A stretch of DNA of 64,000 bases from Acidobacteriota bacterium (lineage in GTDB: Bacteria; Acidobacteriota; Terriglobia; Bryobacterales; Bryobacteraceae). The DNA is taken from contig CANIVU010000029.1 of the NCBI GenBank assembly GCA_947470805.1, forward strand, positions 1,583-65,582, read 5' to 3'. Below, piece by piece: positions 26,782 through 43,751 of this stretch; position 1 is the stretch's first letter, and each line of letters starts with the position of its first letter. Position numbers and translations under genes: made by a program. The notes beneath the pieces are model-generated. The model did not search any database. It was not told the DNA's origin and saw nothing but the letters and a program-made list of their open reading frames with translations.

Positions 26782-26990
26782 CTTGCCTCTCCCAATTCCG
26801 CCTTATCCGTGTGGCAACTGCCTTTGTTGGCGCAACCACCGCCGCAGCCGTGGAGCATAAAGTCCAGAACGTCCTTGTCCGGGTTCCGGCACCCGGAGCG
26901 CCGGCGAACCACGTTCTGTAGAAAGACCCAGAAACAGAGGACGGCAAATAATCCGCCCACCGCACGCAGTAGATTCCAGAGTTCGCTCAT
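26778..26990 (-). CDS. 70-aa Cys-rich single-TM micro-protein
   Basis: MSELWNLLRAVGGLFAVLCFWVFLQNVVRRRSGCRNPDKDVLDFMLHGCGGGCANKGSCHTDKAELGEAR. In the track it is hidden as the tail of the spurious 238-aa ORF 26778..27494. ATGA overlaps at both ends, with rnfA and with FNR. Confidence 0.6.
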   Translation of the reverse strand: MSELWNLLRAVGGLFAVLCFWVFLQNVVRRRSGCRNPDKDVLDFMLHGCGGGCANKGSCHTDKAELGEAR

Positions 26991-27571
26991 CCGCCACCTC
27001 CCATACCGGCGAAGCCCATGAAGGCCATCGAAAGCACGCTGGCCAGCACTAGCGTGAGGGCGGTGCCGCGGGCGAGGCTGGAAATGTCGGAAAGTTCCGT
27101 GCGTTCCCGGACCAGCGCGAGCAGGCACATGGCCATGCAGTAACCGCCGCTGGCCGACAGCGCAAAGACGGTGCTTTGTACGAAGTTGTAGTTGCGTGCC
27201 GTTTGAAAGAGCGGCACGGCGAGCACGGCGCAATTGGTGGTGATCAGCGGCAGGTAGACGCCGAGTTCGCGGAACAGCGCCGGGCTGTTCTTCTTGATGA
27301 ACATCTCCGTCAACTGCACAGTGGCGGCGATGATGACGATGTAGACGATTAACCGCAGATATTCGACGTGGAGCATGACCAGCACGATGTTCATGCCGTA
27401 GGAAAGAATGCCGCTGACGGTGATGACGAACATGACCGAGACGCCCATGCGCCATGCAGTGGAGAACTTCGCCGACAGGCCCAGGAACGAACACATCCCG
27501 AGAAAAACGCAGAGAACGAAGTTATTGATGAGGAACGAGTCGACGAATATGTGACCTAGTGATTCATTCAT
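26987..27571 (-). CDS. rnfA: Rnf complex subunit A
   Basis: ORF trimmed to ATG 27571. MNESLGHIFVDSFLINNFVLCVFLGMCSFLG..., a six-TM RnfA/NqrE-type protein. Confidence 0.92.
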   Translation of the reverse strand: MNESLGHIFVDSFLINNFVLCVFLGMCSFLGLSAKFSTAWRMGVSVMFVITVSGILSYGMNIVLVMLHVEYLRLIVYIVIIAATVQLTEMFIKKNSPALFRELGVYLPLITTNCAVLAVPLFQTARNYNFVQSTVFALSASGGYCMAMCLLALVRERTELSDISSLARGTALTLVLASVLSMAFMGFAGMGGGG

Positions 27572-28224
27572 GAGCGCACCTCGGCGGGCTGGATTTCCGT
27601 GAGACCGGCTTGCAGTTGCCGTTGCTTCCGTTCCCGGAAGGTGGCGAAGACGAGCAGCCAGATGGCGAGCGAAATGAAGCCTCCGGGAGGGAGGAGGAAC
27701 AGCACCCACGGCTCAAAGTTGGGGCCAAACAGCGGGATGCTGAGGAACGTGCCGGCGCCCAGAACTTCGCGCACCGTACCCAGGCAGGTGAGGCCGAAGG
27801 CGAAGCCCAGGCCCATACCGGCGCCGTCCATCATGGAGGGGATAACGGGCTTCTTGGCGGCGAAGGCTTCGGCGCGTTCGAGTACCAGGCAGTTGGCGAC
27901 GATCAATGGGATGAACGGCCCGAGCGCCTTGTACACCGGGATGCTGATGGCTTTGACGAGATAATCCGTCACCGTGACGGCAGTGGCGATGATGGCGATA
28001 TAAGTCGCGATGCGCACCTGTTTGGGGACGTGTTTGCGGATGGCGGCGATGAGGCCGTTGGAGATCACCAGAACGAAGGCGGTGGCCAGGCCCATGGCGA
28101 TGGCGTTGCGCACGCTATTGGTGATGGCGAGCGTCGGGCACATGCCGAGGATCTGGACGAATGTCGGGTTCTGACGCCAGAGGCCGTTCAGAAAGGGGTT
28201 CGGAGGTGTGGTGGTGGTGCTCAT
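27568..28224 (-). CDS. rnfE: Rnf complex subunit E
   Basis: GLWRQNPTFVQILGMCPTLAITNSVRNAIAMG, an RnfE/NqrD-type protein. Confidence 0.92.
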   Translation of the reverse strand: MSTTTTPPNPFLNGLWRQNPTFVQILGMCPTLAITNSVRNAIAMGLATAFVLVISNGLIAAIRKHVPKQVRIATYIAIIATAVTVTDYLVKAISIPVYKALGPFIPLIVANCLVLERAEAFAAKKPVIPSMMDGAGMGLGFAFGLTCLGTVREVLGAGTFLSIPLFGPNFEPWVLFLLPPGGFISLAIWLLVFATFRERKQRQLQAGLTEIQPAEVRS

Positions 28225-28847
28225 CAGTTTCCTCGCTCAATGCGCTCTTTGTTGCGCTGAATGACGGGCTCCATTTCGCGGATGCTGTTGGCCAGCAGGC
28301 GGCCGACGGCGCGGGAGGAGATGGTGGCGCCGGAGATGGCGTCGATCTCCCAGGGGTTCTTTTTGGTGCCGTGCTTGACGGCGGTGATGGGGTGGCTGGC
28401 GTCGAGCGCCTTGAAGTTGGCCAGGAAGTCCGGATCGGTACCGATCTTGTTGCCGAGGCCGGGCGTTTCCCGCATTTCGACGACGGTGAAGCCGGTGACG
28501 GTTTTGGCCGAGGGCGAGTAGGCGTACATGGCCGAGATGATGTCAGCGTAGCCGCGTTCATTGGCTTCGAGCACGACGCCGAGCAGTTTGCCGCCTTTGT
28601 CGTAACCGGCAAAGAGGCGTTTGGCGGTAGTCTCGCCGCCGGTGTGAACGGCGAGTTCGCCGGAGGGCTCGATGACGTAGACCGTCTGGTGATCCATGCC
28701 GGGGAGCAGTTGGATGAGCGACTCACGGAGGATGGTTTCCTGATTGATCTGGATGCGGCCGTGGGTGACGATGTTGACGCCGACGATCAGCATGCCGCAG
28801 ATCAGGGAGAGCACACCGAGAAATCGAATCATGACGACGCTGTTCAT
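28224..28847 (-). CDS. rnfG: Rnf complex subunit G (FMN-binding)
   Basis: ORF trimmed to ATG 28847. N-terminal TM anchor. Flavinylation motif AISGATISSRAV. Confidence 0.88.
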   Translation of the reverse strand: MNSVVMIRFLGVLSLICGMLIVGVNIVTHGRIQINQETILRESLIQLLPGMDHQTVYVIEPSGELAVHTGGETTAKRLFAGYDKGGKLLGVVLEANERGYADIISAMYAYSPSAKTVTGFTVVEMRETPGLGNKIGTDPDFLANFKALDASHPITAVKHGTKKNPWEIDAISGATISSRAVGRLLANSIREMEPVIQRNKERIERGN

Positions 28848-29902
28848 ATGGCACCTTCCGGTTTGCGCGCGCCGTAGGGGCGGGGCGGCGTCAGGCGGTC
28901 GATCAGCGGGGACAGCGCGTTGCCGAGAAGGATGGCGCACATGACGCCTTCGGCGAGGCCGCCGAGGTTGCGGATGAGGATGGTCAACACGCCCATCAGC
29001 ACGCCGTAGATCCACATGCCGCGCGGGGTGACCGGGGAGGCCACCGGGTCCGTCGCCATGAAGGTGGCGCCGAGGAGCAGGCCGCCGGTGAAGAGCATGA
29101 AGAGCGGGTCGGGGTAGCGGGCAGGGTCAAGGAGATGGAACCCCGCCGCCGCTGCCACCGCCCCGCTCAGCATCGCTACGGGGATGCGCCAATCCATCAT
29201 GTGGCGGAAGACCAGGTAGGCGCCGCAGAGGAGAATCAGGAACCCCGGGATTTCGCCCGATGAGCCCGCGCGCTGGCCCCAGAACATGGGCCAGGGGTCG
29301 GTGTAGATGTGGTCGAATTTTTGGAGGACTAATGGAGTGGCGCCGGTGAAGCCGTCGACGCGGACCTGCGAGATCCAGTCGGCGATGGGCGGCGGTTTCA
29401 TCAGCGGCATGGTCCAGGTGGTGGGGACGAATTCGGCGAAGCGCGCTTTGGCTAGGGTCGGCGTGTAGGTGGTGATGGCCACCGGGAAAGCCGCTTGCAG
29501 AAAGGCGCGGCCGACGAGGGCCGGATTGAAGACATTAGACCCGAGACCGCCGAAGAGCAGTTTGCCGGGGGCGATGGCGACCAGGCTGCCGAGCAACGCC
29601 ATCCACAGCGGGAAGCCGGGAGGGAGAGTGAGCCCGAGCAACAGGCCGGTGATGGCGGCGCTGTAGTCGTTGACGGTGGAGGCATTGCCATTGGCGCGGC
29701 AGAGAATATGTTCGGCCAGCACGCAACCGGCGGTGGTTGTCGCGAGCAGCACCAGGGCGCTGAGGCCGAACTGCCAAACGGAGAACGCGGCCAGCGGCAG
29801 CATGGCGTAGACCACGTTCCGCATGATCATGTCCACGGAAAGCGGCCCGTGAAGATGCGGGGACGTGCGGACTTCGATGATGGTCGTGGTGACACCGCTC
29901 AT
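28844..29902 (-). CDS. rnfD: Rnf complex subunit D
   Basis: ORF trimmed to ATG 29902. SPHLHGPLSVDMIMRNVVYAMLP and FTGATPL (flavinylation-type motif). Polytopic. Confidence 0.92.
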   Translation of the reverse strand: MSGVTTTIIEVRTSPHLHGPLSVDMIMRNVVYAMLPLAAFSVWQFGLSALVLLATTTAGCVLAEHILCRANGNASTVNDYSAAITGLLLGLTLPPGFPLWMALLGSLVAIAPGKLLFGGLGSNVFNPALVGRAFLQAAFPVAITTYTPTLAKARFAEFVPTTWTMPLMKPPPIADWISQVRVDGFTGATPLVLQKFDHIYTDPWPMFWGQRAGSSGEIPGFLILLCGAYLVFRHMMDWRIPVAMLSGAVAAAAGFHLLDPARYPDPLFMLFTGGLLLGATFMATDPVASPVTPRGMWIYGVLMGVLTILIRNLGGLAEGVMCAILLGNALSPLIDRLTPPRPYGARKPEGAI

Positions 29903-31224
29903 GCGCGCGCCTTCCTTTCCCGGTTCATCTGCTTGGCGACTCGGAAATACTGCACCAGCGGGATGTGCGCCGGACAGACATAGCTGCAACAGGCGCATTC
30001 AAAACAGTCGTTCAAGTGGTAGATCTCTTCCATCTCTTCGTAGCGATCCTTGCGCGCCAGCAGGCCCAGGTGGGAGGGGTCCAGATGCAGCGGGCAGACA
30101 TCGACGCAGGCCGCGCAGTGGATGCAGGGGTAGATAGTTTCGGCCTTCTTCGCGGGCATCACCAGGACGCCGGTAACGCCTTTGGTGAGGGGGATGTCGA
30201 AGGAGCCGACGGCCGGGCCCATCATGGGGCCGCCGAGGATGATCGACGCCGCCTGGTCGGTGCAACCGGCTTGTTCCAGCACCCAGCGCAACGGCGTGCC
30301 GAGGGGGATGAGGTAGTTGCCGGGCTTGCTGACGGCGGGTCCGGTGACGGTGACGACGCGCTCAATGAGCCCGTGGCGGTGCGGCAGCAGTTCGCCGATC
30401 TGGGCGAGCGTGGCGACGTTGAAGACGGCGAGGCCGACATCGGCGGGCAGACCACCGGTGGGGATTTCGCGGCCGAGCAACACTTTGACCAGCATCTTCT
30501 CGGCGCCTTGCGGGTACTTGGCGGCGACGGCTTCGATGGTGATATCAGGCCGGTCCGCATTGGCTTTGCGGAGCGCGGCGATGGCGTCCGGCTTGTTGTC
30601 TTCGACGCCGATGACGGCGCGTTCGACACCGAGCGCCCGCATCACCACACGCGTGCCGTGTAGCACCTGTTTGGGGTACTCCACCATCACGCGATGATCA
30701 GTGGTGAGATACGGTTCGCACTCGCAACCATTGACGACGACGGTATCGATATGCCGTCCCTGCGGGGGCTTCAATTTGACGTGTGTCGGGAATGCCGCGC
30801 CGCCCAGACCCACGACGCCGGTCGCCTGCACGGCGGCGATGACTTCAGCCGGCGACATCTGTGTGATGTCCTGATCGGAGCCGTAGAGCACCTCCTGGCT
30901 GGCGCTGGGATACGGCTTGATGTAGATGGCCATGGTCAACTCGCCGCGGGCGCTGGGCGCCGGGGCGATGCGTTCCACGCGGCCGGTGGCGGGGGCGTGC
31001 ATGGGGACGCTCATGAAGCCATCGGCTTCAGCGATCGGTTCACCTCGCACCACTTCCTGACCCTCGCGAACGATGGCCTTGGCCGGTTTGCCGGCGTGTT
31101 GCAACAGCGGGACGACGAGCAATGGCGGGAACGGCAGACGCCGAATCGGCAGATGCGCGGTCTGCTCCTTGTTTTCCGGGACATGTACGCCCCGCCATAA
31201 CCGTTTTGTTCCGAAGAGGTTCAT
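29899..31224 (-). CDS. rnfC: Rnf complex subunit C
   Basis: VPLLQHAGKPAKAIVREGQEVVRGEPIA. NADH-site-like GLGGAAFPTHVKL. Two 4Fe-4S motifs, CIHCAACVDVCP and CFECACCSYVCP. Confidence 0.92.
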   Translation of the reverse strand: MNLFGTKRLWRGVHVPENKEQTAHLPIRRLPFPPLLVVPLLQHAGKPAKAIVREGQEVVRGEPIAEADGFMSVPMHAPATGRVERIAPAPSARGELTMAIYIKPYPSASQEVLYGSDQDITQMSPAEVIAAVQATGVVGLGGAAFPTHVKLKPPQGRHIDTVVVNGCECEPYLTTDHRVMVEYPKQVLHGTRVVMRALGVERAVIGVEDNKPDAIAALRKANADRPDITIEAVAAKYPQGAEKMLVKVLLGREIPTGGLPADVGLAVFNVATLAQIGELLPHRHGLIERVVTVTGPAVSKPGNYLIPLGTPLRWVLEQAGCTDQAASIILGGPMMGPAVGSFDIPLTKGVTGVLVMPAKKAETIYPCIHCAACVDVCPLHLDPSHLGLLARKDRYEEMEEIYHLNDCFECACCSYVCPAHIPLVQYFRVAKQMNRERKARA

Positions 31225-31243: not shown

Positions 31244-34200
31244 CTAGTTGTACTTCGCCGCGCGCTTCACGAGCTTCTCCAAATCCTTCTCCGACGGGTC
31301 CATGGGCTGCCCGGGGTGAATGACCTGCGCCGTGCACTTTTCGGCCGCTTTCACCAGATCGCGATACGGTCCGCCCTTCGCGTTCTTGATAATGGCCTGT
31401 TTGTTCTCGTTGTAGGCGAAGATGCGGTTGTTGATCCGCATGCACTCGTCGCAAGAGGTGCACATGGAGGATTCGATCCAAGGTGCGCTGGAGGCCGCGG
31501 CGGGGGCGGCGGGAGCCGGGGCGGGGGCGACCGATGTCGCTGTAGGGACCGGGGCGGCGACGGCCTTGACGGCCATCGGCGCCGGAGCCGCGCCGTCACC
31601 GAGCAGGCTGCCATTGGCAACCATCTCCAGCAACTGCGCCGCAATGGACTGCGCGAATTCGCTGCGCGCCTGTTCGGCGATCGCCGTTGTGTCGACGGCG
31701 GGCCGGACGCCTGCCAGCGACTTCAAGAGCCGCCAGAAGTGGCGTCGATCCTCGCAGGAGTGAACCAACGGTTCGGCGGGAATCACGCGGATCAGCTTGT
31801 TCTTCTTGTTCACCGCCCAGATGTAGGGGAACTTCCCTTCCCTGTCGTCGGCTTCGAACTCTAGATACTCGGCGAGCGGGACCATGTTGTCGTTCCAGGC
31901 GTCGCGCGGTACCGTGCGGAACTGTTTGCGGAAGCGGCCTTCGGTCATGGCGAAGTCGGCGAAGGTCATCGGGACCTCCATTTCGCCGGGCGCGCCGTTC
32001 TCGTCCTGATACTTCAGGGTATAGGTCGGCCAGTCGTCGTCGAGCGAGGGATTGCCGTCGAGGTTCAAGCACTCTTCCGGCAGGTTTCCCTTGTCGGGGT
32101 TGTAGCGGAGGATGGGGTAGGCCCGCGATTCGACGGCGAGCTTGCTCTGGAATTCCGCCAGATCGTCGGCGATTCCGTGCTCCGGCATGCAGGGGCTGTA
32201 GATGTTGAACAGCGCTGGCCGGCGAGCGTTCAGGCCTTCGACGAACGATTCGATCAGGTGCGACGTATTCGCCGTCGTGCCCTGGGCGATGAAGGTCGTT
32301 CGGTGCGCCATGCCGATGAGCGCGATCTCCTTTCGGATCTCTTCCTTGCCGTGGAACGCTTTGCCGTACTGAGCCATATCGGAAACCTGACCCGTAAAGC
32401 CGGACGTGCATGCCTGGCCGCCGGTGTTCGAATAGACCTGCGTATCGAGCACCAACACCTTGATCGGCTTACCGGACATCATCATGCGCGACAGGTTTTG
32501 GAAGCCGATATCGTACATCGCGCCATCGCCGCCGATGGAGACGACAGGCGGGCAGAGGTGGAACTCCTCGTCGGTGAACTGCTTCCAGTTGAAGTAGGTG
32601 AAGAACTCGCCGTGCTTCTCTTTGCGGTAACCGCCGTCGAGTTCCATCTCGGCCATCCGGATGGCGACGAAGCCTTCGGCCATGCGGGCCATGTGGCCTT
32701 CAAAGATACCCATCGCCATGGACGGCGAATCCTGGAAGAGGTGGTTCGTCCACGGGAACGGGTAGGGGTTGAAGGGGTAGGTCGACGCCCATACGGACGT
32801 GCAACCGGTGGAGTTGACGATGCCCATGCTGGCGCGGCCGCGGCGGCCGGCACCGTCGGTGTACTGCCAGCGCAGGTGCTTCAACTTGGCGATTAGCTGC
32901 GACACCCAGCGGAGCCATTCCGGATCGATGGTCTTGCCGGCGTGGCGGGCGTCGAGTTGTTCAGAGAAACTCGCCAGCGTGACATCGGCGTTGTGCAGAT
33001 GGTCGAGCGCGTTGGCCACACGGGCGTCGTCACTGAGATCGATCGTGGCCGCGAGCTTCAACCGCGTGTGCTGGTCGAGCCGGGCAATCAGATCGTCGAT
33101 CTTCTCAATCTGCCGGGCCACGCGCGGTTGCATCAGCGCTTCCGCGGTCGCAACAAAGAGGTGCACCACGGTCTTCTCACCACAGCCCAGGCAGGCGCCG
33201 TCGCCGCCCACCATGCCCATGTAGTTCTTCCTGTCGAGCAGCAGCGTATGCAGCGCGCCGATGCCCTCGTCGAGGCTATCGATGCGTATGAACTCGGGGG
33301 CCGTTGTCGGCAGGGACTGCCACAGATCCCAGTTACGCCGCAGCTTCTCCGTCGATTCCGGCGTCTGCGTCACCGGCTTCAGCGCGTTGTCGTTACAGAC
33401 CTTGACACACTCCATGCAGCCCTTACAGGCGAACGGATTGACGGTAATCGACAACAGACCGCCGGATCCCTGCTGCTTTTTCTCGCGCGCCGTCCAGAAG
33501 GGCTGCGGCGTGGCAAAGGCAAAGTCACCGACCGCGGCGCGCAGGTTGTGCAGTTCCTCGGTGAGTTCCTTCTTCTCGGTGTTTTCGAGCGGATAGGCCG
33601 CCAGCAAATCTTCCATCGCGGCGTCGAGCATCTTGCCGACGTCGGGCCTGCTCATGCCGTCGCCGAGCTTCGCGCGCAGCTTCTGGTCCAAGGTACGAAT
33701 GGCTCGGGGCAACTGCCTGGCTGGCTGGCCGTTGGCGATCACTTTCTTCATCGCCGTTTCCAACACGGCCAGCACAGAGTGCACGAGGCCGGGAATCGCG
33801 CTGTCGGGACAAATCGTGTAGCAGGCGCCGCACGCCGTGCAGTTCTCCGGCAGCCATTCGGGATGCTCGAACCGCACGCCGGTCATGTCGCGGAACAGAG
33901 CCGTGGTGGCGGGGATGAAGCTGAGGCCGATAAACGGGTCGGCCAGATTGTCGTTCCCGCGGCCGGTGGCGTAAAAGGTGCCGGTCTGCTCCCAGAAGCG
34001 GTGGATGTCGGTGGTCGCCGTCGCCGCGGCCACTTGCCGCTGCAGCACCATCGGCACATCCGGCGCCTTGCGAACGGCGAGCGGAGTGGCGTTGATTTTT
34101 TTGTCTTTAATCTCCTTCACCTCGTCGAATCCGCGGCGCACGACGCGCACGTTGTCTTCTACCACTCGCGCGCCCTTGGTGCCGAACTTGTGCTCGAGTT

Positions 34201-36184
34201 GCAAGCGGATGGCCTGGAACAGATTCTGATCGGTCAACTTCGCCTGGCCCATCAACGGCGAGGCCGCAAAGAAGGCGCCCTGGAAGGCGTTGCCCTGCAT
34301 GCGGAACTGCAGTTCGACGTCAGTGGCCTCTTCGCGGGCGATTTTAAAGGCGTCCAGGTAGTAGAGGTGAATCTCGTTGTCGATCAGAATCCGCTGGAAC
34401 TTCTCAGGAATCTGTTGCCAGACGTCGGCCGGATCGGTATGCGCGCTCTGCAAAATGAACACGCCGCCGCGCTTCAAACCAGCCAGAGGATTGGAGTGCA
34501 GGAACACGTTCGGATCGGGCGAGAGCACCACGTCCACGTAGAAGTAGTCGCAGTTGACGCGAATCGGCTCGGGCGCCGCGGCCAGGTAGTAGGTGGTCGG
34601 TTGCCCCTTCTTTTCGGAACCGTATTTCGGGTTGGCTTTGATGTGATAGCCCAACAGGTCAAACAGCGTCATCGCCAGGTTTTTGCCTGTCGTGATCGCG
34701 CCCCAGCCGCCCACCGAATGGAACCGCACAGTGATGCTGTTTTTCGGCATCAGGTTCGGATTCTCGCTGCCATGGACGGCCAGCGCCTTCAGCCCCGGAT
34801 AGGCGTCGGCCACCTGGATCTGATGGATCTCCTGTTTCGGTGTGAACGGCTTGTCGTGCACGAAGTCGATCGACAGGTAGAAAAACCTCCGTTTGCCGCC
34901 GTTCGGCAACATGTTTTCAATCGCGCCAATCAGCCCTTCCGGCTGTAAGTCGCGGCTGCCCAGGCCGAACGAACCGGAATACAGCGGCGGCATATCTTCG
35001 GCTTTTTTATAGCTCGCGTAGCCTTCGTGCACCACGCCGGAGCGGCCATTCTCCACGCAGCGGCCCAGCGCCGCGCGCACTTCACGGATCAGCGGCAAAT
35101 CTTCGGCCAGCGGTTGATCCACGCGTTCCAGTACGGTCACGCCCTTGCGGCCCTGCAGCAAGGCGCCCAGCACATCGCCGGGGAACGGGCGGAACATCGT
35201 AAGGTTCACGACGCCCACTTTCAGCTTCCGGGTCTCGCGCAGATAGTCGGCCACAACCTCGGCCGTCACCAGCATGCTGCCCATTCCAAGGATCAGGTAT
35301 TCAGCGTCTTCGGCGCGATAGGTGGACACGCGCTGATAGCGGCGCCCGGTCAGCGCGTAGAACTCCTCCATCGCCTGATCGGTGATCCCTGCAATATGGG
35401 CGAAGAAGTAGGGCCGTTGCGCGGCCACGCTCTGCATGTAGGCGTCCTGGTTTTGCACCGTCCCGATCATCACGGGATTGTCCACCGTCCACAGCTCCGG
35501 AATGCGGCGCCGTTGCGGCCCGTAGAGGAGCCGTTGCGCCGGGGTCGGCGTGTCGATGATGTCGTCCGGCCGGCCCAGGTATTCCTGAATCAACTCGCGC
35601 TCCGGTAGCAGCAGCGATTCGATCAAGTGCGTGGTAAGAAACCCGTCCTGCGCGCAGATGCCCGGCGTCAACGACAGTTCGGCGATCCGGTGCGAGATGA
35701 TGTTCAAATCGCACACTTCCTGCGCGCTCTTGCCAAAGAGTTGGAAGAACCCGGTGTCATCAATGCAGTGATAGTCGTCGTGGCCGGCGTGCACATTCAG
35801 CGTCGATTTCGTCATCGCGCGGCAGCCCATGTTCAGTACATAAGTGAGCCGCTTGCCGACGGCCGCGTACAGCGACTCGTGCATGTAGGCAATGCCCTGC
35901 CCCGACGAAAAATTGGTCGCGCGCAGCCCGGTCATCGAAAGCCCGGCCGTCACGGCGGCGGCGGCATGTTCGCCTTCCGGTTCAATGAAAATCAACGGGC
36001 GGCCGGAGATGTTGATGTGGCCTTTGGCCGACTCTTCAGCCCAGTATTCGCCCATCTGCGTGGAGGGAGTGATCGGGTATGCACCCGCGGCGTCGCTCGA
36101 CTCCCGTTCGCACATAACGACGGCGGTGTTCCCATCCATCGCCTGCCGCACGCCGGGGTAACGGAAGCTCTGTTTGCCATTCAT
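31244..36184 (-). CDS. Giant (1646 aa) pyruvate/2-oxoacid:ferredoxin oxidoreductase-like protein with C-terminal ferredoxin-like domain
   Basis: Core motifs: AYPITPSTQMGEYW; VRFHSVGGWGAITTGKNLA; CTACGACYTICP and CKGCMECVKVCN; GDGACLGCGEKT; STGCTSVWAS; GGDGAMYDIGFQNL...LDTQVYSNTGGQ. These are followed by an Ala/Pro linker and then CTSCDECMRINN...AAEKCTAQVIHPG. Confidence 0.9.
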   Translation of the reverse strand: MNGKQSFRYPGVRQAMDGNTAVVMCERESSDAAGAYPITPSTQMGEYWAEESAKGHINISGRPLIFIEPEGEHAAAAVTAGLSMTGLRATNFSSGQGIAYMHESLYAAVGKRLTYVLNMGCRAMTKSTLNVHAGHDDYHCIDDTGFFQLFGKSAQEVCDLNIISHRIAELSLTPGICAQDGFLTTHLIESLLLPERELIQEYLGRPDDIIDTPTPAQRLLYGPQRRRIPELWTVDNPVMIGTVQNQDAYMQSVAAQRPYFFAHIAGITDQAMEEFYALTGRRYQRVSTYRAEDAEYLILGMGSMLVTAEVVADYLRETRKLKVGVVNLTMFRPFPGDVLGALLQGRKGVTVLERVDQPLAEDLPLIREVRAALGRCVENGRSGVVHEGYASYKKAEDMPPLYSGSFGLGSRDLQPEGLIGAIENMLPNGGKRRFFYLSIDFVHDKPFTPKQEIHQIQVADAYPGLKALAVHGSENPNLMPKNSITVRFHSVGGWGAITTGKNLAMTLFDLLGYHIKANPKYGSEKKGQPTTYYLAAAPEPIRVNCDYFYVDVVLSPDPNVFLHSNPLAGLKRGGVFILQSAHTDPADVWQQIPEKFQRILIDNEIHLYYLDAFKIAREEATDVELQFRMQGNAFQGAFFAASPLMGQAKLTDQNLFQAIRLQLEHKFGTKGARVVEDNVRVVRRGFDEVKEIKDKKINATPLAVRKAPDVPMVLQRQVAAATATTDIHRFWEQTGTFYATGRGNDNLADPFIGLSFIPATTALFRDMTGVRFEHPEWLPENCTACGACYTICPDSAIPGLVHSVLAVLETAMKKVIANGQPARQLPRAIRTLDQKLRAKLGDGMSRPDVGKMLDAAMEDLLAAYPLENTEKKELTEELHNLRAAVGDFAFATPQPFWTAREKKQQGSGGLLSITVNPFACKGCMECVKVCNDNALKPVTQTPESTEKLRRNWDLWQSLPTTAPEFIRIDSLDEGIGALHTLLLDRKNYMGMVGGDGACLGCGEKTVVHLFVATAEALMQPRVARQIEKIDDLIARLDQHTRLKLAATIDLSDDARVANALDHLHNADVTLASFSEQLDARHAGKTIDPEWLRWVSQLIAKLKHLRWQYTDGAGRRGRASMGIVNSTGCTSVWASTYPFNPYPFPWTNHLFQDSPSMAMGIFEGHMARMAEGFVAIRMAEMELDGGYRKEKHGEFFTYFNWKQFTDEEFHLCPPVVSIGGDGAMYDIGFQNLSRMMMSGKPIKVLVLDTQVYSNTGGQACTSGFTGQVSDMAQYGKAFHGKEEIRKEIALIGMAHRTTFIAQGTTANTSHLIESFVEGLNARRPALFNIYSPCMPEHGIADDLAEFQSKLAVESRAYPILRYNPDKGNLPEECLNLDGNPSLDDDWPTYTLKYQDENGAPGEMEVPMTFADFAMTEGRFRKQFRTVPRDAWNDNMVPLAEYLEFEADDREGKFPYIWAVNKKNKLIRVIPAEPLVHSCEDRRHFWRLLKSLAGVRPAVDTTAIAEQARSEFAQSIAAQLLEMVANGSLLGDGAAPAPMAVKAVAAPVPTATSVAPAPAPAAPAAASSAPWIESSMCTSCDECMRINNRIFAYNENKQAIIKNAKGGPYRDLVKAAEKCTAQVIHPGQPMDPSEKDLEKLVKRAAKYN

Positions 36185-37101
36185 GAGTGCACTCCTTGAG
36201 TTGAACTATTTGCCCGCTGCAGAGGCAGGTCCGCCTCGGCCACAGGTAACGGCGATTGCCGTGTAATTCGCTTTGCGTCCAGGCCGCGCATGGGCGGCTT
36301 GTCCTTTTCCATCCACACGATTGCCCCGGTCGGGCAGCGCTGGATGGGCGTTGGTGTCGCCAGCGCGTTTCGCGCATAGTCGACCACCGCCAGATTGTTG
36401 ACAATTTGAATCAGCCCCGCAGGCGCATCCGCGGCGCAACGTCCGCACGCCGTGCAGGCAACTTCGCAATCCAACTCCGACTGCTGCCCGTCGGCTAGAT
36501 TCTTACAGGCTACCCACAGGCGGTGGCTCACCAGATGCAAAGAAAACAGTTGTTTCGGGCAGATGTCGACACAATCGCCACACGCGGTGCACATGGAAGG
36601 CATCACGACGGGCAGGCTGTGACGATCCATCGTGATCGCCTTGAAATCGCAGACCCGCTCGCAATCCCCCAGGCCCAGGCACCCCCAACTGCAACCCTTG
36701 CCACCACCGTTGACCAATGCTGCCGCACGGCAGGTCTGCAAACCCACGTATTGAGCCCGGTGGCGCGCCACATGGGGCCCGCCAGCACAGGCTAATCGCG
36801 CCACCCGGCGTTCTTCGGTCCCGGCGTCGATCTGCAATAACGCGGCGATCGCCTGCACCCCATCCGGCGTGCTAACCGTGCACTTGCCCGGCGCGATTTC
36901 GCCCTTTACCGCCTTCTCCGCGAACGCCCGGCAACCCGCGCAGCCGCAGGCGCCGCAGTTGGCCTTCGGCAGCATCCCCTCGACTTCATCGATTCGAGGA
37001 TCCTCATACACATACAACTTCCTGTCGGCATAAGCGAGCATCGCCGCCAGTGCGACCCCGATCCCGCCCATCACCCCGCCGGCAACCAGGAACTCATTCA
37101 T
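36181..37101 (-). CDS. rnfB: Rnf complex subunit B (polyferredoxin)
   Basis: N-terminal TM at VAGGVMGGIGVALAAMLAY. Motifs: CGACGCAGCRAFAEKA, then CSWGCLGLGDCERVC, CTACGDCVDICP and CTACGRCAADAP. The stop overlaps the PFOR start (ATGA 36181-36184). Confidence 0.88.
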   Translation of the reverse strand: MNEFLVAGGVMGGIGVALAAMLAYADRKLYVYEDPRIDEVEGMLPKANCGACGCAGCRAFAEKAVKGEIAPGKCTVSTPDGVQAIAALLQIDAGTEERRVARLACAGGPHVARHRAQYVGLQTCRAAALVNGGGKGCSWGCLGLGDCERVCDFKAITMDRHSLPVVMPSMCTACGDCVDICPKQLFSLHLVSHRLWVACKNLADGQQSELDCEVACTACGRCAADAPAGLIQIVNNLAVVDYARNALATPTPIQRCPTGAIVWMEKDKPPMRGLDAKRITRQSPLPVAEADLPLQRANSSTQGVHS

Positions 37102-37344: not shown

Positions 37345-38370
37345 ATGGTCAACATCTGGCGACGTACCGCGCTCTCCCTCGCCATCGCCGGCGGCCTCTT
37401 CGGCCTCCGGTTTGTTCCCTGGGAAAAGCCGGTCTCCACCATCCGCCTCAGCCGCCCGCTCATGGGCACGCTATGGACCATTGAAGTGTTCGACGAGGCC
37501 CGCCCCGCCGCCGCCCGCGCGGCCATTGATCAGGCCTACGCCGAACTGAACCGCATCGATCGCTTGATGAGCGAGTGGAAGCCCGAGTCCCCTATCTCAC
37601 AGGTCAACGCCGCGGCCGGCCGCCATCCCGTCGAGGTCCCCGCCGAACTCCGGGAATTGATCGAACGCAGCATCCGCTACAGCCGCATCACCGAGGGCGC
37701 CTTTGACATTACATGGCGCGGCATGGGATCTATCTGGAAATTCGACGATACCTTCCGACCGCCCACCAAACAAGCCGTCGAAACAGCCCGCCGCAACGTG
37801 GACTACCGTGCCATTCAAATCCACGGCAACCGCGTTTTCCTTCCGAAATCCACGATGAGCATCGGCCTTGGCGGCATTGCCAAAGGCTACGCGGTGGACC
37901 GCGCCGCGGCCGTTCTCGCGCAAGCCGGCTTTACCAATACGATGATCGATGGCGGTGGCGACGTCCGCGTGTCCGGCGCCCGCAACGGCCAACCCTGGCG
38001 GCTGGGCATTCAACATCCCCGCCGCGAACACGGCCAACTGCTCGCCGCCGTCCAACCGCGCAATCAGTCGCTGGTTACCTCCGGCGATTATGAACGCTTC
38101 CGTATCGTCAACAACGTCCGGTACCACCACATTATCGACGTCCGCACCGGCTGGCCCGCCAACGCCGCCAGTTCCGTCAGCGTGCTCGCCCCCACCGCCG
38201 AACAGGGCGTCGTACTCGCCAAAGGCATCTTTATCCTGGGCCCGGAAAAGGGCCTCGCCCTCGCCCATACCGAAGGGGTGGAGGCGCTCCTCATCGATCC
38301 AGGCGGCCGCCTCTTCGCCACCTCCGGATTCCAGAAAGTTCTCGAATTCCCCCAACAGGAAGACAAATAG
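37345..38370 (+). CDS. apbE: FAD:protein FMN transferase (flavin transferase ApbE)
   Basis: ORF trimmed to ATG 37345. TM anchor followed by RPLMGTLWTIEV...AELNRIDRLMSEW.PESPISQVN and GGIAKGYAVD. Confidence 0.88.
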   Translation: MVNIWRRTALSLAIAGGLFGLRFVPWEKPVSTIRLSRPLMGTLWTIEVFDEARPAAARAAIDQAYAELNRIDRLMSEWKPESPISQVNAAAGRHPVEVPAELRELIERSIRYSRITEGAFDITWRGMGSIWKFDDTFRPPTKQAVETARRNVDYRAIQIHGNRVFLPKSTMSIGLGGIAKGYAVDRAAAVLAQAGFTNTMIDGGGDVRVSGARNGQPWRLGIQHPRREHGQLLAAVQPRNQSLVTSGDYERFRIVNNVRYHHIIDVRTGWPANAASSVSVLAPTAEQGVVLAKGIFILGPEKGLALAHTEGVEALLIDPGGRLFATSGFQKVLEFPQQEDK

Positions 38371-38372
38371 AC

Positions 38373-40271
38373 ATGTCCACATCCACCGTCGACGCCGATA
38401 TCGCCACACCCGCCAGCGCCGTCCAGATTGTCGATCAACACATCGTCGAGATCGTCAGTGATTCCGGCGAAGGCGCGCAAACCTGCGGCCAGATGTTTGC
38501 CGACCTTTGCGCGCGCAACGGCAACGGCATTTGGACCGTCGAGATCATCCCGGCCGAAATCGAACCCCCCAGCCGTTCCCGCGCCGGCGCCAGCGGCAAC
38601 CGCATCCGCCTTGGTTCCAAGCCAGTCACCAACGCCGGCGATTGCGCCGATATCGTCGTCGCGCTGAACGAACAGGTTCTCTACAGCCGGATCGACGCCG
38701 GAGCACTCCGCCCAGGCACCACCGTCTTCGTCGACAAAACATGGGCCGAAAGTCCCGACGAGGACATCCGCCGCCGCTACGCCGAAGCCATCACCGACTT
38801 CAACGCCCGGTCCTACTTTGTCGTCGAATCACCCATCGAAGCCGAGTGCCGCAAACACACCGACGACCCGAAAAAGGGCAAAAACATGTGGGTTCTCGGC
38901 TTGTTGTGCGCCATCTATGATCTGGACCGCTCCAGCGTCGGTGCCAATATCGCCAAGCGCTTCGCTAAGAAGGGCGAAGCCGTCATCAACAAAAACCTCG
39001 CTCTTTTCACCGACGGCTACGACTGGGCCCTCGCTCACGTCCGCCAGCGCTACCGGATCCCCGCGCAGAAACACACGCAGCCAATGGTTGTCATGAATGG
39101 CAATCAGGCAATCGGCCTCGGCATCATGGCGGCCGGCATCGAAGTCTGCTCCATGTATCCCATCACCCCGGCAACCTCCGCCTCCCACTTCCTGGCGCAA
39201 GCCCTCCAGGACGCCGGCGGCTTCGTCCACCAGGCCGAGGATGAGATCGCCGCCATCGGGTTCGCCATCGGCGCCTCCTACGCCGGCAAGACTGCGGTCA
39301 CGATCACCTCCGGCCCCGGCCTCGCACTCAAGACCGAGTTCCTCGGCTACGCCGGAATGGCCGAAGTCCCGTTGGTCATCGTCGTGGTTCAACGCGGCGG
39401 CCCCTCCACCGGGCTGCCCACCAAGATCGAACAGGGCGACCTGCTCGCCGCGCTCTACGCATCCCCCGGCGACAGCCCGAAGATCATCCTCGCCCCGGCC
39501 ACCATTGAAGAGTGTTTCCACTTCATGATCACCGCCCGCAAGCTCGCCGAAGACTTCCGCGGGCCAGTCATGGTGCTCTCCGATGCCAATCTCGCCACCG
39601 GCCAGCAGCCCTTCCCAAAACCCCAACTGCAAACCGATTGGCTCGCGGCTCCCATCGACCAGGCCGCCTGGGATCAAACGGTCCCGCCCTTCGCCTGGGA
39701 CGCGGAGACCGGTCTCTCCAAACGCCCCATTCCCGGCCAGCGCGGCGGCGAATACGTGTTGACAGGCCTCGCGCACGACGAGGAAAGCCACGTCGCCTAC
39801 GAATCGGCCATCAACCAAAAAACTATGGAAATGCGCAGCCGCAAACTCGCGGTGCTGCAAAGCGTGCTGCGGCCGCCCAAGGTCTACGGCGACCCCGAAG
39901 GCGACCTGCTTGTCATCGGCTGGGGCTCCACGCTTGGCTGTATTGAAGAGGCCGTCGACCAGTTGCGTGCCGAAGGCAAGCGCGTCTCCTCCATCCACCT
40001 GCGCTTCCTCTCGCCCATGGAACCGGGGCTCAAACAGATCTTCCAGAAGTTTCGCCGCGTCATGACCGTGGAGGTGAATTATAGCGACCCTGTCGGGGCA
40101 CCCTACATCACCCCCGAATCCCGGCGCTATTCGCAACTGGCGCAACTGCTGCGCTCCCAAACCCTCGTCGACATCGATTGCTGGGGGCAAGTCCCCGGCA
40201 GCCCCATCCCCCCGTCGAAGATCGCCGCCGAACTTCGCCGCCGCCTCGACGCGATCACCAAGGAGAACTAA
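38373..40271 (+). CDS. korA: 2-oxoacid (2-oxoglutarate):ferredoxin oxidoreductase alpha subunit (gamma-alpha fusion type)
   Basis: Gamma-like segment IVSDSGEGAQTCGQMF...IVVALNEQ, then alpha segment MNGNQAIGLGIMAAGIEVCSMYPITPATSASHFL. It starts 2 nt after the apbE stop. Confidence 0.9.
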   Translation: MSTSTVDADIATPASAVQIVDQHIVEIVSDSGEGAQTCGQMFADLCARNGNGIWTVEIIPAEIEPPSRSRAGASGNRIRLGSKPVTNAGDCADIVVALNEQVLYSRIDAGALRPGTTVFVDKTWAESPDEDIRRRYAEAITDFNARSYFVVESPIEAECRKHTDDPKKGKNMWVLGLLCAIYDLDRSSVGANIAKRFAKKGEAVINKNLALFTDGYDWALAHVRQRYRIPAQKHTQPMVVMNGNQAIGLGIMAAGIEVCSMYPITPATSASHFLAQALQDAGGFVHQAEDEIAAIGFAIGASYAGKTAVTITSGPGLALKTEFLGYAGMAEVPLVIVVVQRGGPSTGLPTKIEQGDLLAALYASPGDSPKIILAPATIEECFHFMITARKLAEDFRGPVMVLSDANLATGQQPFPKPQLQTDWLAAPIDQAAWDQTVPPFAWDAETGLSKRPIPGQRGGEYVLTGLAHDEESHVAYESAINQKTMEMRSRKLAVLQSVLRPPKVYGDPEGDLLVIGWGSTLGCIEEAVDQLRAEGKRVSSIHLRFLSPMEPGLKQIFQKFRRVMTVEVNYSDPVGAPYITPESRRYSQLAQLLRSQTLVDIDCWGQVPGSPIPPSKIAAELRRRLDAITKEN

Positions 40272-40273
40272 CC

Positions 40274-41227
40274 ATGCAAGGTCTACACAAAGAGTGGGAA
40301 GCCGAAGCCGCCCCCCGTACCTGCGCCATCGAAGACTACCAGGGCGCCGCGGCCCGCTGGTGCCCCGGCTGCGGGGATCATGCCGTTCTCAACGCCGTCC
40401 AGCGTTTGGCGCGTGATAAACAGCTCCCGCCGGAGAAGACCGTCTGCGTCTCCGGTATCGGCTGCTCCAGCCGCTTCCCCCACTACATGAGCACCTACGG
40501 GTTCCACGGTCTTCATGGCCGGGCGTTTCCCGTGGCCTGCGGCGTCCGCTCCCGCCGTCCGGATCTGCACATGTTCGTTGTTACCGGCGATGGCGACTGC
40601 TGCGCCATCGGCACAGCGCACTGGATCCACACCATTCGCTACAACATGGATCTCACCATCCTGCTGCTCGACAACAACATCTACGGTCTCACCAAGAACC
40701 AAACCTCACCCACCACGCGCACCGGTGAGAAATCCAACACCCACCCGCGCGGCAACGTCCTGCCACCGCTCAATCCGCTATCGGTTACTCTCGGCGTCAC
40801 CAACGCCTCCTTCGTCGCCCAAACAGTGGACTGGAACCCGCCGCATCTCTACAACACCATTCGCGCCGCCTACGAACACAAAGGCACCTCCTTCGTGCGC
40901 GTCCTGCAACGCTGCCCGCACTTCACCTCCCACATCTTCGCCGAAGCGCAGAGCGACATGAGCCAGTGCCTGCTGCTGCTCGATGACGCCGGCATTCCGC
41001 TCGACCCCGGCCTGCAGAGACTCTTCCCCAATCGCGCCGCGCACAATCCGTGCGATCTCGCCTCCGCGCGGGCCATCGCCAGCCGCGAGGATGTCTATCC
41101 CGTCGGCCTGCTCTACCGTGACGAAAACGCCGCCCGCTACGACCTCCAAACGTCGCAGGGACTCGGCAAATCGCAGGCCGAAAAAGTCGCCGCCACCGAA
41201 AAGTGGCTCAGCAAGTACGAACTGTAG
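40274..41227 (+). CDS. korB: 2-oxoacid:ferredoxin oxidoreductase beta (TPP-binding) subunit
   Basis: ORF trimmed to ATG 40274. Motifs: WCPGCGDHAVL, GIGCSSRF, and VVTGDGDCCAIG...LLLDNNIYGLTKNQ. Confidence 0.9.
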   Translation: MQGLHKEWEAEAAPRTCAIEDYQGAAARWCPGCGDHAVLNAVQRLARDKQLPPEKTVCVSGIGCSSRFPHYMSTYGFHGLHGRAFPVACGVRSRRPDLHMFVVTGDGDCCAIGTAHWIHTIRYNMDLTILLLDNNIYGLTKNQTSPTTRTGEKSNTHPRGNVLPPLNPLSVTLGVTNASFVAQTVDWNPPHLYNTIRAAYEHKGTSFVRVLQRCPHFTSHIFAEAQSDMSQCLLLLDDAGIPLDPGLQRLFPNRAAHNPCDLASARAIASREDVYPVGLLYRDENAARYDLQTSQGLGKSQAEKVAATEKWLSKYEL

Positions 41228-41235
41228 AGGATGCC

Positions 41236-42762
41236 ATGACAGCCACCATCCCCGAACAACTGCGCACCTTCCACATCACCGGCCACGGCATGGACGAATC
41301 CGTCCCGGCGCTCTCCGTCGAAGGGGTCACCAACGCCCACGCCTTGCCCAGCCTCGAAGCCACCTACCCCATTCGCCTCGCCTCCGGCCTGCTCGTCCCT
41401 TTCAACGCCGAAGCCGCGATCACCCTTCCCATCGCCGCCCTCCTCGAAACGCGAGCCCCACTTCACGCGGCCTTCATCGAGACGGTGCGCCGCACCGCGG
41501 AACGGCTGGAGGACCTGCTCGCTCTCGATACCAGCCACGCCGACGACGCTGTATCCCCGGCCACGCTCACCAACGCGCTTGGTGCCGGAGGCCAGTATCT
41601 CAACACCGCCGGCCTCACCGCCGCCCTGCGTCGCCGCACCACTTCCGTGCACCGCATGACACCGGAACGCCGCGACCGCTGCAGCCACGCGCTCCTCGCG
41701 CTCCTGCAAGCTCTCGCCGTCGTCCCGCCTCCCTTCGCACTCTTCCACACCAGCCCGGTGCCCAACCCGTTCAACGGCCAACTGCACCACTCCGCCGATC
41801 CCTGCTCGGCCGCCGTCGATCACGCCCGCAGCCAGTTGACCGCCATGCAGTCCACGCTTCGCGCCCTGCGTCTGGCGCGTCTGGAACTGGACGACGCCTA
41901 CGACCCCGCCCACCACGACGCCATCCTCGAACGCTTCCGCTGGGAAGCAGCCGACCCGGCCGAGGTCGCCGCCCAACCGCCCGTCATCGCCGTCCTTTCC
42001 GCCGACGAAGCCGCCGCCCTCCCGCTCCAATCGCTCTCGCGCGCGCTCCACTCCGGCTGCCCGATTCTCATCATCGTCACCAAGCCGGCCCTCACCGCCG
42101 CCGACATCAAATCCACCAGCCCCGATCTGGCGCAGATCGCCTTGGCGCATCGTGACGCCTACGTCCTGCAGGCATCTCTCGGGCACCCAGCACATCTACA
42201 GTCGGCTCTCGCCGCACTCACCCAATGCGTCCGCCCGGCGTTGGCGGTAATCGCCGTGCCCTCCGCCGGCGGGTGGCCCGAAGCCGTCCTGCTACCGCTC
42301 GCCAAGGCCTTCGCGCTGTTCTCCTACAATCCCGCCCGCGGCCCGGCCTGGCGCGATAGTCTCGACCTTTTCCCCATCGAACCCAACCCCTGGACCGCGG
42401 CCCACGCCGCCGCCTGCAACGCCTCTTTCCGCTACCACTTCCGAATGTTGCCCGCCGAAGCCGATGAACATGACCCCATCGAACTCGGCAAGTACCTCGA
42501 ACAGTTCCGGAACCAGCCTCCGCTGGCAGTCCCGTTTCTCGCCATTGCGGAGGATGCGAAGGTTGCGGTCTCTCGCGATCTCGCCGAGTTCTGCCACGAC
42601 CGCCTACAGGCATATCAACTTTTGGAGCAAGCGCTCCAGAAACCCCAGCCTCCCTCGGAACCCATGCCCGCTTCCAGGGAAGCCACCGAACTAGCCATGC
42701 GTCAGGGCGCCGAGATCGCCGTCGCTCGCGTGGTGGCACTACTAACCGGCACTCAATCATAA
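41236..42762 (+). CDS. Degenerate paralogue of the PFOR TPP-binding domain (probable pseudoenzyme), function unknown
   Basis: Collinear hand alignment to the C-terminal third of the 1646-aa PFOR (blocks given in the findings). The GDG...NTGGQ TPP/Mg motif is replaced by SAD...AADIK. The gene starts 8 nt after the korB stop. Confidence 0.7.
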   Translation: MTATIPEQLRTFHITGHGMDESVPALSVEGVTNAHALPSLEATYPIRLASGLLVPFNAEAAITLPIAALLETRAPLHAAFIETVRRTAERLEDLLALDTSHADDAVSPATLTNALGAGGQYLNTAGLTAALRRRTTSVHRMTPERRDRCSHALLALLQALAVVPPPFALFHTSPVPNPFNGQLHHSADPCSAAVDHARSQLTAMQSTLRALRLARLELDDAYDPAHHDAILERFRWEAADPAEVAAQPPVIAVLSADEAAALPLQSLSRALHSGCPILIIVTKPALTAADIKSTSPDLAQIALAHRDAYVLQASLGHPAHLQSALAALTQCVRPALAVIAVPSAGGWPEAVLLPLAKAFALFSYNPARGPAWRDSLDLFPIEPNPWTAAHAAACNASFRYHFRMLPAEADEHDPIELGKYLEQFRNQPPLAVPFLAIAEDAKVAVSRDLAEFCHDRLQAYQLLEQALQKPQPPSEPMPASREATELAMRQGAEIAVARVVALLTGTQS

Positions 42763-42782: not shown

Positions 42783-43169
42783 ATGACTCAGAAGACGCAG
42801 TCCCTTTACGATCGTATCGGTGGCGAGGAAGCAGTCGCCGGCCTCGTCGACCACTTCTATGATCGTGTCCTCGACGACCCGGAACTCGAACCTTTCTTCC
42901 GCTACACGCCGATGGAGAAACTCCGCTCCATGCAGTTGGAGTTTTTCGCCGCCGCCCTCGATGGGCCGGTCAAATACACCGGCCAACCCATCGACTACAT
43001 CCATCAGGGTCGAGGTATCACCACCAAGCACTTGACCCGCTTCATGGGACACCTGCTCATGACCATCCGCGAATTCCACCCGAATGAGAAGGAAGTCGAC
43101 GAGATGATCCAGCGCATCAGCACCTATGCCGACGATGTACTCGACGGCGCCCCCGGCGACTCCGAATAG
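42783..43169 (+). CDS. glbN: Group I truncated haemoglobin
   Basis: 128 aa. SLYDRIGGEEAVAGLVDHFYDRVLDDPELEPFF...MQLEFFAAALDGPVKYTG, typical of trHbN. Confidence 0.85.
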   Translation: MTQKTQSLYDRIGGEEAVAGLVDHFYDRVLDDPELEPFFRYTPMEKLRSMQLEFFAAALDGPVKYTGQPIDYIHQGRGITTKHLTRFMGHLLMTIREFHPNEKEVDEMIQRISTYADDVLDGAPGDSE

Positions 43170-43190: not shown

Positions 43191-43751
43191 ATGCTCCGCC
43201 GCACGCTTCTCGCCTCGTTCGCCGCCGCCAGTGTCTTAGCGCAAAACGCGAAAAAGAAACCGCTCGACGTCCCCTACGTGCCCACGACGGAAGCGGCCGT
43301 GCGGGAGATGTTGAAGCTTGCCAAGGTACAGAAAAGTGATGTCGTCTATGACCTTGGCTGCGGTGATGGTCGCATCGTCATCACCGCGGCGAAAGAGTAC
43401 GGCACTCGCGGCGTGGGCTTCGACATCGACCCGCAGCGCATCAAAGAAGCTCGCGAGAACGCCAAAAAGGCCGGCGTCGAACACCTCGTCCGCTTCGAGG
43501 AAAAGGATCTCTTCCTGGCCGACTTCCGCGAAGCCACGGTCGTCACCATCTTCCTGCTCCCGCAAATCAATCTGCGGCTCCGCCCCAAGCTGTTGAAAGA
43601 CCTGAAACCCGGCTCCCGCGTCGTGTCCAATACCTTCGACATGGGCGATTGGAAGGCCGAAAAACAGGCCAGCCTCGCCGAGTCCGACGACGAGTACACC
43701 GGACTCAGCCAGAACTTCTTCCTCTGGGTCATTCCCCAATCCGGGAAGTAG
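43191..43751 (+). CDS. Exported class I SAM-dependent methyltransferase
   Basis: Signal MLRRTLLASFAAASVLAQ. SAM motif I VVYDLGCGDGRIV. GFDIDPQRIKEARENA. Confidence 0.8.
   Translation: MLRRTLLASFAAASVLAQNAKKKPLDVPYVPTTEAAVREMLKLAKVQKSDVVYDLGCGDGRIVITAAKEYGTRGVGFDIDPQRIKEARENAKKAGVEHLVRFEEKDLFLADFREATVVTIFLLPQINLRLRPKLLKDLKPGSRVVSNTFDMGDWKAEKQASLAESDDEYTGLSQNFFLWVIPQSGK

Follow-up and report, generated by a model that had tools for sequence, protein, structure and literature searches.

Domain VI of pyruvate:ferredoxin oxidoreductase (PFOR) and the beta subunits of the 2-oxoacid:ferredoxin oxidoreductases (OFORs), among them PorB, KorB and the oxalate oxidoreductase beta subunit, represent one thiamine diphosphate (TPP)-binding fold (TPP_enzyme_C, PF02775; PDB entries 6cin/6cip, 1b0p, 5exe and 9bt4_C), with a GDG-X(24-30)-N motif for TPP/Mg2+ and four cysteines, in CxxC, (S/A)TGC and xPC motifs, as ligands of a proximal [4Fe-4S] cluster. 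Ferredoxin-type electron carriers are either built into these enzymes, as in domain V of PFOR, or provided as a delta subunit (PorD/KorD) with two [4Fe-4S] clusters, whereas two-subunit KorAB-type OFORs hold a single Fe-S cluster, and their electron hand-off in oxygen-exposed soil bacteria is poorly understood. In Azoarcus evansii a third gene by korAB encodes KorC, which reportedly routes the electrons of the KorABC 2-oxoglutarate:NADP+ oxidoreductase to pyridine nucleotide. Here we analyze a further protein encoded next to korAB, the 508-aa product of the open reading frame (ORF) at 41236..42762 (+ strand) of a 64,000-nt stretch of an Acidobacteriota bacterium of the Bryobacteraceae (contig CANIVU010000029.1, positions 1,583 to 65,582; hereafter the window), to which we give the working name X. 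BLASTP, profile-profile comparison, structure modeling and a family search together identify X as a cofactor-less paralogue of PFOR domain VI and its C-terminal extension, in a short form without ferredoxin domain. The main new result is that X is no local oddity: it belongs to a large, apparently undescribed family of korAB-linked pseudo-PFOR proteins.

X shares fold and descent with PFOR domain VI and the OFOR beta subunits, and the 'YNP...G' and 'F/HFR' segments that follow the domain at PFOR C-termini are also present in it. Unlike these relatives, however, it has neither the GDG...N motif nor the four cluster cysteines and falls below the Pfam and NCBIfam thresholds, and unlike PFOR it stands alone, without the PYR domain, domain II or domain III. 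KorC, for its part, is reportedly a reductase of the flavoprotein type with no relationship to PFOR domain VI, whereas X carries no cofactor motif. The nearest catalytic relatives of X are instead PFOR-like proteins of a long, Rnf-linked type (~1560-1700 aa), which occur, for example, in Cohaesibacter intestini and bear the annotation 'pyruvate-ferredoxin/flavodoxin oxidoreductase' or '2-oxoacid:acceptor oxidoreductase family protein'. Their residues ~960-1530 correspond to X, including a lineage-specific helical insertion and a C-terminal helix, the N-terminal part of this correspondence being not significant, and their linker and Fer4_13 end recur in the wider X family. The long PFORs nevertheless keep the catalytic and Fe-S motifs as well as domains I-III and V, none of which X keeps, and the two fall into separate clades. 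We therefore regard X as a predicted descendant of long, Rnf-linked PFORs that retains their PP domain and C-terminal extension without the cofactors, and as a known fold in a new, non-catalytic form.

The X start codon (ATG at 41236) lies 8 nt after the korB stop codon (41225-41227), and the coordinates thus agree with an earlier interpretation made from the letters and translations of the window without database searches (the sequence-only reading), which had drawn attention to the 508-aa ORF at this position. A Shine-Dalgarno-like GAGGA (41227..41231, + strand) overlaps the korB stop codon and ends 4 nt 5' of the start, which we favor over an upstream GTG at 41203 because the N-terminus MTAT..EQLRTFHITGHG is common to 15 homologues. 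In BLASTP, residues 145-464 of X align with residues 1114-1488 of the 1646-aa PFOR-like protein encoded in the same window (84.3 bits, E=7e-21, 89/383 identical, 23%), and all the collinear block pairs that the sequence-only reading had matched by hand between the two proteins fall inside this alignment. Profile-profile comparison of the 16-member X family with a profile of six long-PFOR orthologues in hhalign extends the result (probability 99.1%, E=1.1e-18, 293 columns), so that the homologous core of X comprises residues 145-468 (41668..42639, + strand), opposite long-PFOR residues ~1114-1492. On these alignments, the shared region is assigned to domain VI plus a C-terminal extension specific to long PFORs. 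A duplication of the adjacent korB was ruled out as the origin of X, since there is no similarity to KorB (E=0.12 for the X profile in hhalign).

The two ends of the protein lie outside this core. The N-terminal 144 residues (41236..41667, + strand) feature the conserved EQLRTFHITGHG motif and, in the model, a long helix; an hhalign comparison of residues 1-185 with long-PFOR residues 800-1180 gives a collinear alignment that falls short of significance (E=0.22, probability 0.3%), and we claim no homology for residues 1-144, which are collinear with long-PFOR residues ~960-1113. At the other end, conservation and the model delineate an amphipathic helix at residues 481-504 (42676..42747, + strand), just after which X ends. 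The equivalent helix of the long PFOR and of most relatives is followed by a linker and then by a Fer4_13 ferredoxin domain.

Curated sequence models do not recognize X: no Pfam or NCBIfam family matches it at E<=0.01, and all scores stay below the curated thresholds. The X-family profile likewise retrieves no PFOR among the PDB chains, its lone match being an acetolactate synthase at chance level (E=0.2), and X is therefore tied to PFORs of known structure through the long PFOR as an intermediate and through a fold search. A confident AlphaFold2 model built from the 16-sequence alignment (pLDDT 85.4, pTM 0.80) has as its top Foldseek matches in the PDB the PFOR of Moorella (6cip, E=2e-7), along with Desulfovibrio PFOR, the oxalate oxidoreductase beta subunit and Methanosarcina PorB, with E-values between 2e-7 and 9e-5 and a probability of 1.0. 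Two of the checks that the sequence-only reading had proposed, profile-profile comparison and superposition of a predicted structure, thus lead to PFOR and OFOR beta subunits, with moderate superposition in the latter case, and the similarity between X and PFOR is real and well past chance.

Within this conserved frame, the cofactor sites are gone. SAD at residues 254-256 (41995..42003, + strand) occupies the GDG position of the TPP/Mg motif in the alignments, where PFOR IGGDGAM stands opposite X VLSADEA, and the Asn-containing half of the PFOR motif, LDTQVYSNTGGQ, faces a shortened and unrelated stretch of X in which the DTQVYSNTGGQ segment has been replaced. Nor does any X cysteine align with any of the four ligands of the proximal [4Fe-4S] cluster; the alignment around the CxxC (DGACLGCGE) is weaker and of low confidence, and there too no X cysteine stands opposite. 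X has six cysteines in total, with neither a CxxCxxC nor any other Fe-S motif. The alignments thus bear out the sequence-only reading that the TPP/Mg2+ signature is destroyed and that the cysteines of STGCTS and SPC are lost, and, in conjunction with the statistical homology from BLASTP, hhalign and Foldseek, they uphold its proposal of a pseudoenzyme derived from PFOR domain VI, the cofactor residues being not merely misaligned. X is accordingly to be filed neither as an OFOR beta subunit nor as a ferredoxin, because TPP/Mg motif, cluster cysteines and model thresholds all fail. Read from its sequence, it is a catalytically dead and cofactor-less, yet conserved, copy of the PFOR thiamine-binding domain.

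One could imagine that, in the Bryobacterales subfamily, X has acquired a redox or ligand function of its own, for example a new metal or cluster site formed by Cys149, Cys190 and Cys453 together with His454 or another invariant histidine. Indeed, all 16 members share C149 and C453 and nearly all share C190, several histidines are likewise invariant, and C149 and C190 align with the part of PFOR that encloses its proximal cluster. In the wider family, however, I/V/L/M predominate at position 149 and F/L/A at position 190, and the protein offers no CxxC-type motif, so that we hold a newly gained site to be quite improbable.

An initial word-indexed search yielded 16 homologues with 50-100% identity, 7 of which a genome scan placed in metagenome-assembled genomes of Acidobacteriota, order Bryobacterales (Bryobacteraceae, Solibacteraceae and Ca. 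Sulfopaludibacter), and suggested a family confined to the Bryobacterales. This picture was overturned by an exhaustive hidden Markov model search with the X profile across 1.84 billion cluster representatives, which retrieved 1494 proteins at E<=1e-3, 1036 at E<=1e-10 and 386 at E<=1e-30, the last set spanning profile positions ~50-508; a word-indexed search with a 60-sequence alignment added few further members. Their sources are Acidobacteriota, Bryobacteraceae, Myxococcota and unclassified bacteria, and their annotations read solely 'ferredoxin' or 'hypothetical protein'. By length they form three classes: X-like proteins of ~500-620 aa; proteins of ~700-870 aa, in which the X core is followed by a C-terminal single-cluster Fer4_13 ferredoxin domain; and proteins of ~1200-1430 aa, which combine remnants of PFOR domains I-III at the N-terminus (weak POR_N and PFOR_II matches) with the X core and Fer4_13. 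In a sample of 60 members, searched with a regular expression for the C-terminal motif, 40 have a CxxCxxC...C[PT] motif or a Fer4_13 match; the other 20 are without ferredoxin domain, as is X, and 19 of them measure no more than 640 aa. Fer4_13 is therefore a feature of a subclass and not universal in the family. GDG at the motif position, by contrast, is found in none of the 60.

Nearly all residues invariant across the family (R212, E217, H227, W236, E243, S273/P276, R306, P334, Y364/P366/G369 and R447) are shared with the catalytic long PFOR, which argues for a conserved fold and conserved surfaces rather than a new active site. A neighbor-joining tree of the core region sets the degenerate family apart from the catalytic long PFORs and places the ferredoxin-less ~500-aa forms, X included, as a derived clade inside the ferredoxin-bearing family; the tree is approximate, and its 'GDG' labels reflect a crude tripeptide search and are no evidence of intact motifs. 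The likely order of events is a long PFOR with tethered ferredoxin that lost its catalytic sites, then its N-terminal domains and then the ferredoxin domain. The sequence-only reading had taken X for a paralogue of the PFOR encoded in the window, and the two are indeed homologous; a recent local duplication is nevertheless rejected, X being a reduced member of an old and large family (1494 representatives), most of whose members carry a ferredoxin domain. In the literature searched, which included a 2025 review of Rnf and Nqr but was covered incompletely, we found neither the X family nor the occurrence of PFOR-like genes within rnf operons described.

The genes around X in the window provide both an intact OFOR and an intact PFOR. 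KorA (38373..40271, + strand) is an alpha subunit with gamma, PYR and domain II regions of a two-subunit 2-oxoacid:ferredoxin oxidoreductase (Pfam POR and POR_N; TIGR03710 at 531 bits, above the cut-off; PDB 6n2n_A at 6e-87), and KorB (40274..41227, + strand) is an intact beta subunit by motif check, Pfam and NCBIfam, with CPGCGD, GIGCS, GDGD...N and CP motifs present and with the Sulfolobus OFOR beta and Magnetococcus OGOR beta subunits as its nearest solved relatives. Pfam detects no ferredoxin domain in either protein, and the window KorAB is of the two-subunit, single-cluster OFOR type. On the opposite strand, 5 kb from X, lies the gene for the 1646-aa long PFOR-like protein (31244..36184, - strand; Pfam, NCBIfam and motif check), the catalytic counterpart of X, whose motifs are all intact (DGACLGCGE, NSTGCTS, GGDGAMYD...LDTQVYSNTGGQ, SPC and two domain-V ferredoxin motifs). 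It scores 428 bits against the NCBIfam PFOR equivalog, where the cut-off is 911, and has as extras a ~300-aa insertion, an Ala/Pro-rich linker and a C-terminal Fer4_13 domain. Its gene sits between rnfB (36181..37101, - strand; Pfam FeS and Fer4) and rnfC, rnfD, rnfG, rnfE and rnfA (26987..31224, - strand; gene calls with approximate start positions), so that the window holds a complete, divergent rnfB-PFOR-rnfCDGEA set 4 kb upstream of X.

This arrangement is strictly syntenic in seven Bryobacterales genomes, where rnfC, the long PFOR gene and rnfB run in one direction and (apbE), korA, korB, X and the gene for a truncated globin (trHb) in the other. Taking lengths of ~632 aa for korA and ~317 aa for korB as the criterion for a two-subunit korAB, we find the family member directly 3' of korA (631-644 aa) and korB (317-318 aa) in all eight contexts sampled outside the orthologue group (L014-L021), so that the conservation of the korB-adjacent position that the sequence-only reading had asked to be checked extends past the orthologue group. 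X matches the family members of L015 and L014 at 8e-58 and 3e-45, respectively. In four of the eight contexts (L014, L015, L019 and L021) rnfB directly follows the family member. Three of these (L014, L015 and L021) show, on one strand, korA-korB-X, rnfB, a second PFOR-like protein, of full length at 1238-1424 aa, and rnfC/D/G; the rnf run of L021 reaches rnfA, and the contigs of L014 and L015 end sooner. In L019, korA-korB-X and rnfB are followed by just a 568-aa N-terminal PFOR fragment. L018 has the divergent layout of the window, with a 737-aa X that carries Fer4_13 and is followed by a globin gene. In L016, L017 and L020, finally, korA-korB-X stands with no rnf or PFOR-like gene in the sampled flanks.

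The PFOR-like genes between rnfB and rnfC (L014:7996-11712, L015:8345-12604 and L021:14845-19119) differ in part from their counterpart in the window. In L014 and L015, the encoded protein has lost CxxC, TGC, GDG and PC and has kept both domain-V [4Fe-4S] motifs. Because this Rnf-embedded protein is itself degenerate, KorAB is the sole catalytic OFOR of the L014 and L015 clusters, where it is flanked by two Fe-S-bearing PFOR-derived pseudoenzymes and Rnf. The Rnf-embedded degenerate PFOR-like proteins constitute a second, distinct family of PFOR-derived pseudoenzymes.

The gene order also bears on which complex X would serve. X could partner the long PFOR or Rnf rather than KorAB, for example by pairing with the domain VI region of PFOR or with RnfB and modulating or capping the complex: its nearest catalytic relative is encoded only 5 kb away, PFORs dimerize via homologous domains, rnfB-PFOR genes lie near X in the window, L018 and every Bryobacterales locus, and the family member is placed between korB and rnfB in L014, L015 and L021. 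The invariant neighbor, however, is korAB and not rnf, three contexts are without rnf or PFOR-like genes in their flanks, and X is encoded on the korAB strand immediately after korB. We consider a partnership with PFOR or Rnf in place of KorAB rather unlikely.

Sequence divergence shows that X is a functional gene, though a fast-evolving one. Across the seven Bryobacterales genomes, identity to the window is 47-79% for X, compared with 84-97% for korA, 85-96% for korB, 84-97% for the long PFOR and 60-92% for trHb. The ratio of nonsynonymous to synonymous substitution rates (dN/dS) against the L007 locus is 0.215 for X, 0.039 for korA, 0.073 for korB and 0.048 for trHb (dS 0.43-0.71); overall, X evolves at a dN/dS of 0.2-0.26 at unsaturated dS, a constraint 3-5 times weaker than on korA and korB, which fits a non-catalytic protein. 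With a dN/dS of ~0.2, X is a functional gene under purifying selection, and 68 columns are invariant in the 16-member subfamily, whose 16 clusters, as divergent as 50% identity, all have an intact ORF of full length. The idea that X is a functionless relic left to decay after a PFOR gene duplication, as its loss of all catalytic motifs, its rank as the fastest-evolving gene of the cluster and its lack of a Pfam match might suggest, is on this evidence extremely improbable: to dN/dS, invariant columns and intact ORFs are added a model pLDDT of 85, more than 1000 family representatives and a fixed genomic position. A pseudogene is rejected by dN/dS and conservation.

The relaxed selection on X relative to the enzyme subunits would also suit a non-stoichiometric assembly, stabilization, oxygen-protection or regulatory factor for KorAB, which might, for instance, shield the exposed [4Fe-4S] cluster of KorB in an organism that encounters oxygen. 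The neighborhood lends this some weight: in L018 and throughout the Bryobacterales loci, X is followed by a truncated globin gene (in the window at 42783..43169, + strand; bacterial-like by Pfam), and a hemerythrin gene precedes korA in L014 (1257-1724) and L021 (6529-6969). These O2-binding neighbors of korAB suggest O2 or NO sensing, or protection of an oxygen-sensitive enzyme, and a precedent for the latter exists in Desulfovibrio africanus PFOR, whose C-terminal domain VII protects the enzyme from O2. The ancestral tethered ferredoxin, on the other hand, points to electron transfer as the original role of the family, and we deem such a non-stoichiometric factor improbable, on a par with the PFOR/Rnf partnership above.

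We give about even chances to the explanation we favor, in which X would act as a non-catalytic accessory or third subunit that docks KorAB to electron acceptors, namely the tethered ferredoxin of the long PFOR or RnfB; its role is probably that of a structural adaptor and not of an enzyme. The sequence-only reading had already suggested that the protein might scaffold or dock KorAB or the PFOR/Rnf system, and the strictly conserved korA-korB-X order fits this; the role itself is still our inference. Mechanistically, the PFOR-like body of a family member would bind KorAB, and in the ancestral form a ferredoxin tethered on a flexible linker would take electrons from the single cluster of KorB and pass them to RnfB, so that 2-oxoacid oxidation could be coupled to NAD+ reduction and ion pumping with no need for free ferredoxin. 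Compared with the carriers built into other OFORs or supplied by their delta subunits, the X family would thereby give the delta-less KorAB a tethered carrier (in 40 of the 60 sampled members), which, unlike the delta domain with its two [4Fe-4S] clusters, is a single-cluster Fer4_13 on a pseudo-PFOR body. The N-terminal pseudo-domains would have been lost earlier in the history of the family and the ferredoxin domain in the X of the window, which, because it has no Fe-S site, would keep the docking or stabilizing role alone and hold KorAB near RnfB and the long PFOR with its tethered ferredoxin.

Several observations weigh against this explanation. Gene order is the sole tie between X and KorAB, and the link to Rnf is frequent rather than universal, because the sampled flanks of L016, L017 and L020 are without rnf. 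With no Fe-S motif, X cannot relay electrons itself, which leaves the contribution of a ferredoxin-less scaffold unexplained. It is, moreover, the fastest-evolving gene of the cluster, which is unusual for a tightly packed core subunit; its N-terminal 145 residues are without significant homology; and the global superposition of its model on PFOR is poor to moderate (TM 0.35 query-normalized and 0.46-0.53 for beta-subunit targets, rmsd ~10 Å).

Taking the loci together, we tentatively propose, as a possibility and less firmly than the docking role of X itself, that X and its family of ~1500 clusters mark an unrecognized respiratory module, in which PFOR-derived pseudoenzymes would wire a two-subunit OFOR to Rnf: one after korB with a tethered ferredoxin, and one between rnfB and rnfC that keeps only ferredoxin-type clusters. 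Such a module would be a free-ferredoxin-independent, ion-pumping 2-oxoacid:NAD+ oxidoreductase in Acidobacteriota, Myxococcota and relatives, of which the Bryobacterales would have a variant with a working Rnf-embedded PFOR and X as a bare docking piece. A system of KorAB, pseudo-PFOR and Rnf appears to be undescribed, and the finding yields the hypothesis that abundant soil phyla may link 2-oxoacid oxidation of the tricarboxylic acid (TCA) cycle directly to ion pumping by Rnf. If true, it would also add a clear example of a pseudoenzyme to the superfamily of thiamine-diphosphate enzymes and correct the systematic mis-annotation of the family as 'ferredoxin' or 'hypothetical protein'.

Several further genes lie in the region. 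An apbE flavin transferase gene (37345..38370, + strand; Pfam) lies immediately 5' of korA and sits between the divergent rnfB and korA; in known systems, ApbE is required to flavinylate RnfG and RnfD. The + strand shows no terminator-like site from korA to the methyltransferase gene, so that apbE may be cotranscribed with korAB-X. That methyltransferase gene (43191-43751, + strand) encodes a small S-adenosylmethionine-dependent protein and is syntenic after the globin gene in most Bryobacterales loci. On the far side of the rnf operon, rnfA is followed by a gene for an FNR-like NAD-binding oxidoreductase (25918-26781, - strand), and just past the operon lies a gene for a CitMHS-family citrate/di-tricarboxylate transporter (24339-25664, + strand), which may bear on a TCA-cycle-related role of the cluster. 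Downstream of the methyltransferase gene, finally, the - strand encodes an M48 peptidase with a double zinc ribbon (43752-44879) and a protein with a REase-ARP domain match (45237-45980).

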